Below, piece by piece: positions 4,351 through 54,650 of a stretch of 64,000 bases of DNA (positions are counted from its first letter, which is position 1; every line of letters begins with the position of its first letter). Under the pieces are notes generated by a model. It was not told the DNA's origin, did not search any database, and saw only the letters and a program-made list of their open reading frames with translations. The DNA is from Octopus vulgaris. Its lineage: Eukaryota. The DNA lies in assembly GCA_951406725.2 (NCBI GenBank), contig OX597818.1, positions 74,152,001 through 74,216,000 on the forward strand, in the 5' to 3' direction. A program made the translations under genes and the position numbers.

Positions 4351-4453
<103 letters not shown>

Positions 4454-4976
4454 TGTATGTATGTATGTATGTATGTATGTACGTATGTATGAATGCTCTG
4501 TATGTTAAGGCGTACTTTTTTCTGTATGATATATATGGTATCTTTATTTCGATAAATCGCAAGAATGTGTAAGCCAAACCCACCACACTCAAATAATGAA
4601 ATAATCTGCTACGATTAACGTATGTGAAACACCACAAATCACTTTAAATGCGTTTGCATTTTCCCATAATCCTTACGAAATGACAAGGATTAAATAATTT
4701 TAATAAAAGGTGGAGAAACACATGTTTCTTAACATTTTCCGGCTCCGTAGACGCAGTAAAGACAGGTATGTGCTGTGTGTGTGTGTGTCTGTGTGTGTAC
4801 GTGTGCATGTATTTTTGTTTCTATGCCAACCTGTGTCGGCGTGTGTGATAAATATATATATATATAAGCGCGTGTGAAAACGTCTGTGTATCTCTCTCTG
4901 TATCTGTTTGTGTGTATGTGTATGTTTTTTGGGAGTGTCTGTCTATATGTAGAAATGTACAAGGGGATGTGTATGA

Positions 4977-10589: not shown

Positions 10590-11174
10590 ACGGATTTGTA
10601 AAAGACAGATGATTTTGTTTTTGAAATATACAAAGGCATTTGTTCACTCGTATGTAGCACTCACGGCTCAAGGATTTACTACTAACTCTCCTCTCAGAAT
10701 GAAGTGTTAAAACAGGATCATTAGCAGTATTATAATCTATATTATTATTTTCAGAGTTGGCATTACCTTTACCAAAAGTATCAAAAACTAGTTCAGGAAA
10801 ATTATCGTTATAGTGTATTTCACAATTAACCGTATCGGTTCCTCTTGTGTTTAGTAATTTTGAGTTGCGATAATGTCTAATTTTACTTTTATCTGGTGCT
10901 CTACTTTCAACCAGATTTCTGAGCGATTAAATAATTTCTCGTACTCACTTGAAGACAAGGAATAGTTATTCAGCGCTGCAAAGAATTTCCAAGGAATATT
11001 AGTAGTTGTGTAAAATACACCTGGTGCATTATACCAGACAATATTTTTTGAATTAGCCTTTCTGTTAACGACATAGACATTTCCCCTAATATAATCACTA
11101 TCGCCATGTTTATAAGTCTTAATCCCAAAAGTAGATGATCTCCTGCCGTAATTCGTATACTTAAAGTCATTCAT
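10590..11174 (-). pseudogene. Frameshifted coding-like relic, possibly parvovirus/densovirus capsid-derived endogenous viral element
   Basis: A 107 aa ORF (…TTTNIPWKFFAALNNYSLSSSEYEKLFN…VKLDIIATQ) continues after a frameshift as KLLNTRGTDTVNCEIHYNDNFPELVFDTFG…. The region is non-repetitive and Asn/Thr-rich. Similarity to parvoviral VP is by eye only. Confidence 0.3.
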
Positions 11175-15302: not shown

Positions 15303-15529
15303 TGCCAGTTTAATTTTTTATTTTACTTCCCTAGTATCTTCGTTATCTTTTATGTTGTATTGTTTGGTAATATGGGAATTTTTTTTTTACATATTATTTT
15401 TTATTTTTAATGTGCATGTTTGATACAGTCACTTGCTGAGACACATGCAGTGCCCTGGTGCGGGTAAAGGATAAGATATGTTACAGTTTGACTGAAAGCT
15501 TGGGGAGGGGAAGTAGCGAAATATGTATG

Positions 15530-16340
15530 CAACATAGACATTTGCCTGTTTTGTTACTGGGTATGATGCTTTCTTGTTTTCATGTTTTGAGACAAGTTTT
15601 AACATCCAGTCCTCAGAGTTTTTCAAGTAGGTATCTAGGCCAATTGTAGCAATCTTCATTGTTATTACCACTTGTAAAAGTCCACGGCCTCCCTCTTTTC
15701 TTGGCTGATAAAGTCGTTCTATATCTGCCTTAGGGTGGTGCATTCTATGCATTGTCAACAGTTTTCGTATTTTTCTGTCAAGATTACATATTTCAGTAAT
15801 TGACCAGTTAACGATATTGAAACTGTAAGTCACAACTGGTATGGCTAAAGCATTGATCGCTTCGATCCTGTTTCTCGCATTCAGCTCTGTCTTGAGTATT
15901 GCTCTTACTCTGTGATAACATTCTCTCCTGATCCTTTCCTTCATCACTGAATGCCTTATTCCATCCCCTTCAATTATCCCTAGGTACTTGTAGCTCTCCG
16001 CTGGGTCTAACTCTTTAACGACATTCTGCTGGTCGAGGTAAGCGTTAGATGTTTCTGTCATTTTTCCTTTGATAAAAGTAGCTTTTGCACATTTATCGAG
16101 GCCACATTGCATTCTGATGTCCTCGCTGAATTGTTTAACAATCGTTAGTAAGCCCTTGAGTTGTTGGTCGTTTTTTGCAAAGAATTTAAAATCATCCATG
16201 TAACTGAGATGATTTATATTTTTATCCAACATTTTATATCCGTACTGTGCGTCATTGAGCAATTTTGAGAGAAGTATTAAGGCTAAACAAAAGAGGAGTG
16301 GTGATTGTGAGTCGCCCTGGAAAATGCCACATGAAATTTT
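15530..16340 (-). mobile_element. R4/Dong-type LINE RT fragment with long open frame
   Basis: GIFQGDS..PLLF, HLSYMDDFK, GLDKCA, YKYLGI, RLYQPRKEGGRGL (ORF 15429..16262). Confidence 0.92.
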
Positions 16341-16394
16341 AATAAAAATGAATTATTATTATTGTTGTTGTTACTATTATTATTTTTATTATTC

Positions 16395-19775: not shown

Positions 19776-20290
19776 ATTTAGAAGGACAAGTCAGTTTAAT
19801 TGAGGGGTCAATAAGAAAGCTAGGTTTATGGTCCTTAAGCATAATCCAGGGTTTTCTAGGGATGTATGGCTCGGTTCTATCATCTTTAGCTAAATCTCTA
19901 ACGATTTGAAACCCTGTATTGTTAATCCTTTCAATATCTAGTTACTTGTGTGTCTATATTTGCTGTGCAATTCCTTCCTAAACATAGGCTTATATAACTC
20001 AATATCAACAATGCCGGTGTTATTTGTTTTGTCCGCTGGCATAAGTATCCCTAGAGCTTTCTTGAAGTCGACAAGTAATTTTCTGATTTTCTACTAATAT
20101 ATATTACACTTTCTAGGGTATTTCCTGAACTTAATGTTCTTAACCATACTAGATAATTCCTCTTCAAATCTGATTAGATGCTGGTTAGTCGGTGGGTTCC
20201 TCTTACATTTGAATACTTTTCTTAGTAGGTCGCCATGTTCAGGTTTGTCATTTGATTTAAGGTACCTATCAAAGAAAAAACCGCATTCTA
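19776..20290 (-). mobile_element. Penelope-like element N-terminal/RT-fingers fragment
   Basis: FKCKRNPP…LIRFEEELSSMVKNIKFRK, ILMPADKTNN (PLE ADK motif), PWIMLKDHKPSF…KLTCPSKS. Confidence 0.75.
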
Positions 20291-30189: not shown

Positions 30190-31310
30190 AGATATTTCCA
30201 AAAATTCTCCATATGAGATTCTTATGAGAATAGATAGAAACAAGTGAATGTATGTATCGACAGTTCAACCAACGCAACACAACCACATATTTACAAACAC
30301 CAAGAACTGTCTTAACTCAAAATATTTTGTTGCTGAACTATCAACAGGCTTCAACACTGATTCTGAGGAAAGCAAAGTCTGGTTATATATTCAAGAGCCG
30401 CCATCACATGGACGACCTCAAACTTTATGATAAAGAAGAATACCAAGTCAGTTTCCTCGTTGATACGGTGTATAATGTCAGTGCTGATATCAGAATGGAT
30501 TTCGGACTGAGAAAGCATGTTAGTCTTGAAGAGAGGCAAAACCAAATGCATGGACGAGCTAGCGATGCCGTCGGCAGAGGTTATGAAGTATATAGAAGAG
30601 ACGGGCAATAAGTACTTGGAGATATTGGAAATGGATATATTGATGGAGAAAGAAATGACAGAAAAAATTAAGATGGAGTACTTGCGATGATTGAGACTGG
30701 TCCTTAAGTCGAAATTAAACGGATGGAATAAGATTGTAGATATCAAAACCTGTGCGGTTTCACTCCTTAGATGTGGAGCAGGAGTAATCGCATGGACAGT
30801 AGATGAACTAAACAGCTTAGACAGGAAGCTGAGGACGTCGCTGACTAGATATGGGTCACTCCACACAGAAGGTGACACAGACAGACTTATGTACCAATAA
30901 AAAGAGGGGCAAGAGGACTTATTGGATGCAAACACAGTATTAGAGCAGAAGAAAACAATATAGCAAGGTATGTAAAAAATGCAACAGAACCGATATTATT
31001 GGAAGTTCGAAGGTCAGGCTTGTATAGGATGAAACGTTGCAAACATAAAGCACTCTAGAAGTACTTGAGAATGAATGAAACTAGAAATAGGAGGGTAAAG
31101 AAAAGAATGCATCGACAATTTCATAGGGATGTTGTAAGTCACTCGGACAGAGACAAAAGATGGCTATGGATGACTAAAAGTGATTTAAAACTGGAAACGG
31201 AGGCTCTGATCTCTGCTGCCCAAGGGCAAGCATTAAGAACCAAATGCATCAAATACAAAATAGATAACATTTCAGAAAGTGATAAGTGCAGAATTTGTGG
31301 ACAAAACGGA
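30190..31310 (+). mobile_element. R4/Dong-type LINE fragment (RT to CCHC knuckle)
   Basis: HMDDLKLY, IRMDFGLRK, KYLEI, LKLETEALISAAQGQALRT, CRICG. Confidence 0.88.
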
Positions 31311-49914: not shown

Positions 49915-50177
49915 TAAAAACGGTAAGATAACAAAAGAAAGAAACAGACCTCAATATTATGTAAATAGAGGAAATTTATCTGTAAAATAATATGTGACAA
50001 TTATTCAATAGCCAAGATAAAACACTGAGTTTCGGATGCCGAAGTGGAAATCCACAACACCATCGCTTCGGTTATCTGGCCAGGTAACCGAAGAGACGGT
50101 GTTGTGGATTTCCACTTCGGCATCCGAAACTCAGAGTTTTATCTTGACTATTGAATAATTGTCACATATTATTTTAC

Positions 50178-51694: not shown

Positions 51695-52094
<400 letters not shown>

Positions 52095-52631
52095 ATAAAA
52101 CGGTAAGATAACAAAAGAAAGAAAGAGACCTCAATATTATGTAAATAGAGGAAATTTATCTATACAATATGTTACATTACTCGGTAGTCAAGATAAAACT
52201 CTGAGTTTCAGATGCCGAAGTGGAAATCCACAACACCATCTCTTCGGTTATCTGGCTATTTGAAAACGTTATGAAAAAATATACCGTTAAAAATGAAGGG
52301 AAATTACTCTGTTATAACTCTGCTTGCCTGCGTACTTATACATCGCTCGCATTTTTCGTCATAAAAATTATATAAAAATACATAAAAAATATATAAAAAT
52401 ATATAAAAATATATAAAATCTTCTTGGGACATAACACAGAAAGCATGTTCTATCCGTTTTCTTTAGGGGACCAAAAACGTAACAGAAATTTAGTCACATG
52501 TGGGCATGATCCGAAAAGTTCTGTCCTTGTATTTAGACATGTGGTAGGGTCTAAGCTGCTTTTCCAGATAAGCCATCTCTCCATGTCGCATAAACCGCAC
52601 CTTCCGCTGCCGTTAGTATAGGGCTTACATC

Positions 52632-53291
52632 TGGTTTACGCCCCCTTACTCACCCGAGGTGGCCTTCAATATAGGTAAATATTTCCTAGCACTGATAGAT
52701 AGACATTTTCCAGTTAACCATGCTTATAGGAAACTCTTCAATAGACACAATTTAAAAATTAGTTTTAGTTCAACTACCAATTTTAAAAACATAATCAATC
52801 ATAACATACAAAAAACACAAGAAGAAAACAGCTGTTCATGCAGGAATAAAGAATTGTGCCCGCTAAATGGAGCTTGCATGTCCAAGACCATCATATATGA
52901 GGCTACCGTAAACTCTATAACCACTAAAGACACCGTTTTGACGAAGAAATACGTGGGCCTGACAGAGGGTAATTTCAAGGCCAGGTTCAATAACCACACT
53001 TTGAGCTTTAGGCACTGGAACAAAAGAAAAGCGACACAATTATCCAATCATATTTGGTCTTTAAGAGATAAAGGTGTCGATTATAACATACAATGGAAGA
53101 TTTTGGCCAGATGTAAGCCCTATACTAACGGCAGCGGAAGGTGCGGTTTATGCGACATGGAGAGATGGCTTATCTGGAAAAGCAGCTTAGACCCTACCAC
53201 ATGTCTAAATACAAGGACAGAACTTTTCGGATCATGCCCACATGTGACTAAATTTCTGTTACGTTTTTGGTCCCCTAAAGAAAACGGATAG
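52632..53291 (+). CDS. PLE RT-thumb plus GIY-YIG endonuclease, open frame but 5'-truncated (listed GTG start at 52659 is probably not real)
   Basis: WFTPPYS…NIGKYFL…HFP, CSC-x5-C linker, IIYEATV…YVGLTE…FKARFNNH (GIY-YIG), WKIL, CGLC, LNTRTE…CPH. The motif layout recalls the Hydra clade of PLEs. Confidence 0.88.
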   Translation, partial: WFTPPYSPEVAFNIGKYFLALIDRHFPVNHAYRKLFNRHNLKISFSSTTNFKNIINHNIQKTQEENSCSCRNKELCPLNGACMSKTIIYEATVNSITTKDTVLTKKYVGLTEGNFKARFNNHTLSFRHWNKRKATQLSNHIWSLRDKGVDYNIQWKILARCKPYTNGSGRCGLCDMERWLIWKSSLDPTTCLNTRTELFGSCPHVTKFLLRFWSPKENG

Positions 53292-53482
53292 AACATGCTT
53301 TCTGTGTTATGTCCCAAGAAGATTTTATATATTTTTATATATTTTTATATATTTTTTATGTATTTTTATATAATTTTTATGACGAAAAATGCGAGCGATG
53401 TATAAGTACGCAGGCAAGCAGAGTTATAACAGAGTAATTTCCCTTCATTTTTAACGGTATATTTTTTCATAACGTTTTCAAA

Positions 53483-53556
53483 TAGCCAGATAACCGAAGA
53501 GATGGTGTTGTGGATTTCCACTTCGGCATCTGAAACTCAGAGTTTTATCTTGACTA
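53483..53556 (+). ncRNA. HHR motif in the PLE 3' pseudo-LTR, CCGAAGA core (mirror copy at 52185-52258, minus strand)
   Basis: AGATAA-CCGAAGA-GATG…CATC-T-GAAA-CTC-A-GAG-TT-TTATCT: 6 bp stem I, predicted GUU cleavage. Confidence 0.65.
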
Positions 53557-53581
53557 CCGAGTAATGTAACATATTGTATAG

Positions 53582-53613
<32 letters not shown>

Positions 53614-53839
53614 TAAATATATTATAGTATAGATGGCCCATTAGTAATTCAAACCTAAAGGTAAATTAATAAACAAGGGCACAAAACAGTACCAGCATTG
53701 CTAGAAAAAAGAGTCAAAAACGATTCACAAAGCCACCAAAAAAGCGCTAACTCAATGAATTGACGAAACAGGGGTAGCGGGAATGCATCTTACCGTAGTG
53801 AGAACAAACTCACAAATGAAGTAATAGATATATACATCT

Positions 53840-54650
53840 CACGTGATTTCGAGCTCTGATTAATTCAGTCTTAGTTCTTGGTAGTGGATCTTCATCATCA
53901 TCATTGTTCGACCGTGGTCGAGACAATGGAATTTACCATGCTACGCCAGACTTCACGGTCCATCATGGCATTACGGAGGTCCTGTTGCTGGATGCCTGTA
54001 TCCCTGGAGATTACATCAGGGTAGGAGAGTGTGCGCCCTCTGGTATTGCGAGTAGATGGCTTCCAGAAGAGAAGAGTAGAAATTACCTCTTTTTCAGCTC
54101 TACAACAATGTCCAGCAAACTGGACGCTCTTACCTTTCACAAGAGATGACACAGCTGGTAGTTTCCCATATATTTGCATTTTGGTTGGATGGCGCTTCCA
54201 CGAGAGATTTTGAGCTCTCATAAGGAGGCGAGTGTAGGTTCCATCCAACCGCCTCTCAAGCTTCTTTGATAACGTATAGATTTCTGAGCCATATAGTAGA
54301 ATTGGTTCGACTGTGGCTTTGAAGATTTCAAGTTTGAAGTCTCTACTTAGATTTGATGACCAGATCTTATGCACAGTGGATCTTACTGTGCTTAGGTTTA
54401 AAGAGTAACTCGCCACGTCAAACTCATGAGAAAAACGTTGTAAAGCATCTGCGAATTCAAATCGGTAGGAGTGCATAGTATGAATAAAATAATATGATAT
54501 ATTAAATATATCGTAATATAGGTTACCCGTAAGCATTTCAAAACTAAAGAGAAATAATAAACACGCTTTTCGACGGTCTTTATCATGCGTTTGACGACGT
54601 GAGTTACTCTTTGACCCTAGTAAGATCCACTGAAGAGAACTAAGATTGAA

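Follow-up and report, generated by a model that had tools for sequence, protein, structure and literature searches.

The question raised by this locus is how a Penelope-like element (PLE) comes to lie in the genome as a head-to-head palindrome with a tail at one end only. In the window, i.e., the whole 64,000-nt stretch of Octopus vulgaris contig OX597818.1 analysed here, two arms (52157-52634 and 53107-53584) are exact complements over 478 bp, and the two halves of a (TA)n target tract flank them on the left (52043..52092) and on the right (53577..53631). Alignment to the family resolved a 5'-truncated, long-ended (L) arm on the minus strand (52090..52634, unit positions 2047-2585, terminating in TCAATA), which has the bases ATA at 52090-52092 in common with the left TA tract, and a 5'-truncated, short-ended (S) arm on the plus strand (52628..53584, unit 1568-2518, terminating in TAGATA). 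The minus arm has a 3' excess of 64 bp, or 67 bp when the ATA common to the TA tract is counted, and this one-sided tail occupies the interval between the short and the long end site (52093..52156, minus strand). The plus copy extends 479 bp further 5', and comparison of the arms leaves an unpaired spacer of 472 bp, present in the S arm only (52635..53106, plus strand). An earlier note on this DNA, made from the letters alone, had described the identical arms, the TA tracts on both flanks and both inequalities of length, all of which were borne out. The overlap of six letters (ATCTGG) that it placed at the inversion junction exists as well, but when measured against a full-length copy the head-to-head microhomology comprises seven, CATCTGG (52628..52634); overlaps of at least 6 nt arose in 0.26% of random joins. 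Moreover, the two arms have two rare indels in common, one of which occurs in 1/59 and the other in 2/60 of the loci scored on both arms.

Within the S arm, a stop-to-stop frame of 224 codons (52617-53291) contains the last 220 codons of a 708-aa reverse transcriptase-endonuclease (RT-EN) ORF (52629..53291, plus strand, from translation and family alignment), and 52629-53288 encode residues 489-708 of the family ORF (220 aa) at 99.5% identity. The frame features the motifs CSCRNKELC (the CxC-x5-C linker), IIY...YVG (GIY-YIG), CGLC (CxxC) and CPH (CxH), and matches the Pfam GIY-YIG family at E 0.02, which is weaker than the Pfam cut-off. It had been called an intact endonuclease frame, and it is indeed open and carries these motifs; however, neither an RT nor an ATG upstream of the Cys linker was found in 52617-53291, so that it represents a truncated fragment and not an intact gene, open because the copy is young. 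The window copy is an inert 5'-truncated fragment of a very young Hydra-clade PLE family, and the palindrome is the usual form of this family and not the product of a special event.

A search of the octopus's own genome with the window frame, in which the best 150 of 26353 first-look candidates were scored, returned the full-length RT-EN copies that the earlier note had suggested looking for. All 150 showed 100% identity without stops, and 23/150 featured a 717-codon open frame; the full copies encode the 708-aa RT-EN in tandem units of 2579-2590 bp (~2.59 kb). Different insertions differ at 0.20% of sites, a value taken from a 15% subsample of pairs among top matches and therefore biased towards young copies. 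The inference of a recent insertion from a very young and likely still active family thus agrees with the near-identical copies and full open frames present in the genome. Copies that are otherwise identical repeatedly show open frames of 543, 607, 664 or 243 codons, i.e., these reflect shared frameshifts, probably at homopolymer runs, in defective sublineages or as sequencing errors.

The family shows the features of EN+ PLEs, namely one ORF encoding an RT plus, at its C-terminus, a GIY-YIG domain, and tandem or partial-tandem as well as inverted insertions with a one-sided tail. The Hydra clade is defined in the accessible part of PMC8557442 by RWK, DKT, CxC-x5-C, CxxC and CxH motifs, by the absence of CCHH and of an N-terminal endonuclease, by a unit of <3 kb and by insertion into (TA)n. 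Consistently, the 708-aa ORF contains MRWKAFF (RWK) and FSDKTKN (DKT), its GIY-YIG endonuclease is C-terminal with none at the N-terminus (as would be typical of Naiad/Chlamys), and by eye no CCHH, the feature of Neptune, Nematis and Penelope-Poseidon, was found between YVG and the conserved E of the endonuclease; the unit of <3 kb, the (TA)n insertion and the CxC-x5-C/CxxC/CxH set also agree with the Hydra pattern, and the earlier note had likewise assigned the element to this clade as probable. On the basis of these motifs and by-eye comparison, we consider the family a distinct, very young Hydra-clade PLE, which is likely still active. A protein search gave 1016 relatives at E <=1e-20 among 7997 scored candidates, the best with 52% identity. 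RT motif 5 reads YKDD in the family (L014, 34-2157), whereas YRDD occurs in 117/120 and YKDD in 0/120 of the listed relatives; the family is young nonetheless. An AlphaFold model of the 708-aa protein (pLDDT 86.7) gave best fold matches to RTs including TERT (E about 1e-8), with no PLE structure among the fold matches listed, and at E 0.1 the full protein had no Pfam family match.

The nearest described element is Hydra-1_Obim, which, according to the available text of PMC8557442, resembles the octopus family in its unit of <3 kb and its single RT-EN ORF (709 aa vs 708), and shares, with its clade, the RWK/DKT motifs, the linker, CxxC/CxH, the absence of CCHH, a 3'-UTR hammerhead (predicted in the octopus family) and (TA)n targets. 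The two proteins are colinear by eye, with 31/43 identical residues by hand count in one gap-free RT stretch. Unlike Hydra-1_Obim as presented there, the octopus family has another 3' UTR, YKDD for YRDD, and many near-identical tandem and inverted copies. An annotation of octopus repeats lists, in the part available, 30 recently active Penelope families (PMC13282606), and this family or a sister may already figure in that catalogue.

The structure of the insertions was addressed with 80 stretches fetched around the higher-placed of the 150 scored matches and merged with the window into 78 insertions; as top endonuclease matches, these loci favour young and longer copies. Two discrete ends were found, S (TAGATA|AAT, unit about 2518) and L (TCAATA|AAT, about 2585), 64-67 nt apart. 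Both ends could be classified in 64/78 insertions, of which 63 were L/S, one L/L and none S/S (binomial P 7e-18); the remaining 14 comprise eight without an inverted arm of at least 40 bp and six in which an end is lost at the edge of the stretch or lies elsewhere. The flank of the sole L/L locus, L098, is mirrored over 1404 bp, which identifies this case as a larger inverted duplication, either a real fold-back or an assembly artefact. S or L ends run into at least 8 nt of TA in 120/140 cases, compared with 3% of random window positions. The association with (TA)n reported from the window alone thereby holds for the family, and the preference of the nuclease proposed along with it would be a reading of these flanks. 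Loose ends that continue into (TA)n are also present in contigs from public runs: X16 and X20 have them at the L site, X20 in addition at the S site (two contigs), and X1, X16 and X20 at the L site of an older subfamily. The accessible parts of PMC8557442 and PMC3846280 already describe the clade, its preference for TA, the inverted arrangement and the tail at one end, and it is the count of one long end paired with one short end that is new: in the open-licence literature, with subscription journals outside the scope, no statement of strict L/S pairing or of twin priming was found for PLEs.

We consider it likely that the two ends left by a cut in a (TA)n tract prime at two fixed sites on one element RNA, and disfavour a fold-back of a single cDNA; the evidence consists of genomic end products in one assembly. 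In such a reaction, the GIY-YIG domain of the element would cut both strands of (TA)n, and the two target 3' ends would pair via a few A/T bases with the RNA, at TAGATA|AAT (S) for one end and TCAATA|AAT (L) for the other. Both cDNAs would then grow towards the RNA 5' end; on reaching the S site, the L-primed one would either stall or proceed through strand displacement, and the cDNA ends could finally be joined by microhomology-type end joining, e.g., over the 7 nt of the window junction, and filled in. In L1 twin priming, two target ends prime on one RNA and the inversion is joined at microhomology. The second site is variable there and the parts do not overlap, whereas the octopus family has two fixed sites and, in most cases, overlapping arms, which yields a palindrome.

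A biochemical parallel exists in the Poseidon-clade protein PAc of the green anole, which, as described in the accessible part of PMC11167929, cuts and extends both strands in vitro and starts reverse transcription at two sites bracketing the tail. No difference in start site was seen there between the strands, and start sites without homology to the cut DNA were reported, both of which count against the present reading. Two start sites around the tail, the use of both strands, the AT-rich target and a dispensable hammerhead cleavage are what PAc would have in common with the reaction proposed for the octopus family. PAc, however, belongs to another clade, and in that account its two sites are not tied to opposite target ends and no strand bias is seen; in the octopus family, ATA|AAT is common to the two sites, together with a few bases that match the TA target. 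Published PLE insertions, including Pen2a_Av, show the same head-to-head layout, partial tandems and a tail at one end in the text available (PMC8557442, PMC3846280), with a tail of 30-40 bp there against 64-67 bp here. The same sources propose endonuclease-mediated resolution or self-priming on an antisense template, whereas here the pairing itself could be counted (63/64) and related to the alleles and lengths of the arms.

The lengths of the two arms were compared at 62 L/S loci, the complex locus L032 being omitted. The furthest 5' reach belongs to the S arm at 35/62 loci, including the window, to the L arm at 20/62, and is equal at 7/62. In three loci (L062, L066 and L110) the L arm consists of the tail only (65-71 bp) and breaks at the S site, which is the geometry of twin priming and supports it. 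The 20 loci with an outrunning L arm would in turn require strand displacement past the second primer.

As to the form of the template, the 3' UTR holds a predicted type I hammerhead (53486..53552, plus strand; assigned from the sequence and the Hydra pattern) with stem I CCAGATAA/TTATCTTG, core CCGAAGA..TGAA, a palindromic stem III ACTC-A-GAGT and a predicted cut after 53544. Its predicted mirror copy lies in the L arm (52189..52255, minus strand), with core CCGAAGA and C at position 4, as judged by eye against the Hydra table in the available part of PMC8557442. The Hydra rows of that table agree with the octopus family in stems and GAAA and differ in the core, CTGA there vs CCGAAGA here. 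The C at position 4 (window 53494-53500) occurs in both subfamilies. CCGAAG might alternatively pair with CTTCGG of stem II, possibly holding the predicted ribozyme off. Rfam gave no hammerhead at E up to 5, its sub-threshold matches falling mostly on TA tracts, and neither the predicted hammerhead (z -1.06) nor the tail alone (z -0.59) folds better than shuffled sequence. Since the S and L ends lie 40 and 107 nt downstream of the predicted cut, i.e., both beyond it, the template would have to be uncut at the last hammerhead, or circular; the 5' ends show by eye no pile-up at the predicted cut. A pairing of GATAAA with TTTATC as an element uniting S and L was dropped, as the older subfamily has TTTACC.

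Whether one or two RNAs serve as template is addressed by the alleles of the arms, for which opposite arms, tandem units and different insertions were compared at 14 polymorphic sites. Disagreements were found in 23/614 comparisons between the opposite arms of an insertion, in 19054/89636 between different insertions and in 37/464 between tandem units in one arm. In the outermost arms, the minor allele is common to both at 53/57 informative sites, where 9.6 would be expected for independent templates; of the rare substitutions, 15 occur on both arms and 40 on a single one. This sharing demonstrates one source locus, not strictly one molecule, as judged from the sequences, and two RNAs of one active locus, or gene conversion from arm to arm, would look alike. 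Two-ended priming could also use two RNAs, or two units in tandem on a single transcript, brought together in a protein or hammerhead dimer whose geometry assigns S and L. The palindromic stem III corresponds to the dimer-type layout described in the accessible part of PMC4209133, a dimer is predicted for PAc in that of PMC11167929, and no displacement would be needed where the L arm outruns the S arm. Likewise in its favour are a private variant in the S arm of L047, which agrees with the inner unit of the opposite arm but not with its outer one, and the differing arms of L085, a locus with three haplotypes. However, the three tail-only L arms, broken as they are at the S site, speak for a block on a common template, and the allele sharing demands that both RNAs nearly always stem from one locus although several haplotypes are young, so that we regard priming on two RNAs as unlikely. 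Against twin priming on one RNA we count the eight of 78 insertions without an inverted arm, the 4/57 discordant sites and L085. Arrays with at least four tandem units in one arm and seamless unit borders were seen in L071-L074, of which L071/L072 mixes two haplotypes. In view of such mosaic arrays, a single monomer circle cannot account for all tandem units, and together with the 37/464 disagreements this left rolling circle on a single monomer unsupported as the rule for, and as the sole source of, tandem units, though it may contribute to some.

The joining of the arms was studied at 68 resolved junctions out of 70, aligned to the full-length reference. Inserts were absent from 47/68, of which 26 showed an overlap of at least 2 nt and eight of at least 4 nt, compared with 17.8% and 2.2% expected for random joins; the other 21/68 contain inserts, 13/21 of at least 7 nt, many of them copied from the element (13/18 on a looser list). 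At 8/68 junctions the two 5' ends are no more than 30 nt apart, vs 1.8 after shuffling (P 0.0002), a result compatible with a common RNA 5' end and equally with a fold-back. An identical inversion junction (unit 697/711) is found at L046 and L055, which differ in contig and in flanks, and further 5' breakpoints recur at about 244, 387, 423, 591, 1230 and 1905. A single cDNA which folds back or switches template at microhomology, copies itself and later loses the tail from one arm would be close to the self-priming and the endonuclease-mediated resolution proposed in the available parts of PMC3846280 and PMC8557442, respectively. It accounts for identical arms, allele sharing and microhomology, and the nearly coincident arm starts in the eight junctions and in the mini family described below, as well as the mirrored flanks of L098, speak for it. 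A copied arm, however, cannot contain sequence absent from its template, and in the window each arm does; an L-primed fold-back should moreover leave the L arm with the furthest 5' reach in every case, in conflict with the 35 loci at which the S arm has it, and tail-only L arms have no palindrome at all. The template switch by which the earlier note explained the window junction is therefore not supported in this form, and we consider a fold-back still less probable than priming on two RNAs.

Polishing or gene conversion could inflate the sharing between young arms, and older mini-palindromes hence provide a better control. One of 254 bp lies in (TA)n within the window (49917..50170, from sequence and genome search) and consists of the 3' end of the same family, i.e., hammerhead and tail, in L/S arms; it belongs to an older subfamily about 90% identical to the young family. 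A search with it, in which the best 40 of 1450 candidates were scored and which would retain L/L and lose S/S copies, gave at least 40 matches of full or near full length at >=90%, and the exact 26-nt centre occurs at 55 places in the genome. All 30 of the 30 minis fetched, the window's own included, are L/S. Their arms differ by 4.2% yet have subfamily alleles in common at 30/37 sites vs 7.5 expected, an outcome that assembly polishing would not be expected to give, and no fixed differences between the arms were found among the 30. Each mini was thus apparently built anew from a one-armed template. A MITE or DNA transposon with terminal inverted repeats was rejected in view of the asymmetric ends, the varying junctions and the lack of fixed arm differences in the minis. 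The mini arms join at TGGCCA directly 5' of hammerhead stem I, where the young family has TAGCCA, and this point may mark the RNA 5' end.

In L087, about 300 bp (about 4400-4790) interleave two parts of the element, likely as a consensus artefact, and the assembly is accordingly not error-free inside these repeats. That the palindromes as such are assembly or long-read fold-back artefacts, or chance pairs of independent insertions, is nevertheless very improbable: L087, the mirrored flank of L098 and the finding that no public-run contig is listed across the window junction, the opposite-strand joints there being ordinary family sequence, are the points in its favour, but the arms differ in extent at either end and their flanks are unrelated, dozens of loci repeat this layout under the same L/S rule with breakpoints that vary, the older minis have diverged arms, and the public runs contain loose ends at the L and S sites.

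A read-through transcript of the window palindrome would, judging from its arms, form a duplex of 478 bp. A scan for fossil traces of ADAR in matches of at least 150 bp, taken from the window and the 80 stretches, gave no A-to-G excess (A>G 17 and T>C 16 vs C>T 62 and G>A 39) and no cluster. Apart from the palindromes, the window holds a C-terminal LINE-type RT fragment (53901-54500, minus strand; weak DUF6451 match), which we take to be RTE-like, and three more RT fragments of LINE-like character, at about 1-714, 15431-16352 and 30353-30995 (minus strand). Faint matches to the family protein at 10914-11042 (E 0.58) and 19783-19929 (minus strand; E 0.011) are possibly old Hydra-like fragments.

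The origin of tandem and inverted PLE insertions is called open in the part of PMC8557442 available, and the steps after first priming are left unvalidated in that of PMC11167929. In this context, the L/S rule and the shared alleles reduce the question to two points, the start site of each strand and the number of RNAs involved, one or two. Extending twin priming on one RNA from this family to PLEs as a whole, we lean, with slight confidence, towards an obligate and programmed process, in which a double-strand cut in (TA)n is followed by priming at two fixed sites on one uncut or circular RNA and by displacement past the second primer. The 254-bp, MITE-like hairpin family would likewise be explained as retrotransposition products. 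No Hydra-clade biochemistry was found in the PLE literature cited here, and the family supplies an intact 708-aa protein with a simple (TA)n target. If the proposal is true, PLE integration would yield as its primary product the head-to-head palindrome tailed at one end, and this Hydra family would be a ready system to show it.
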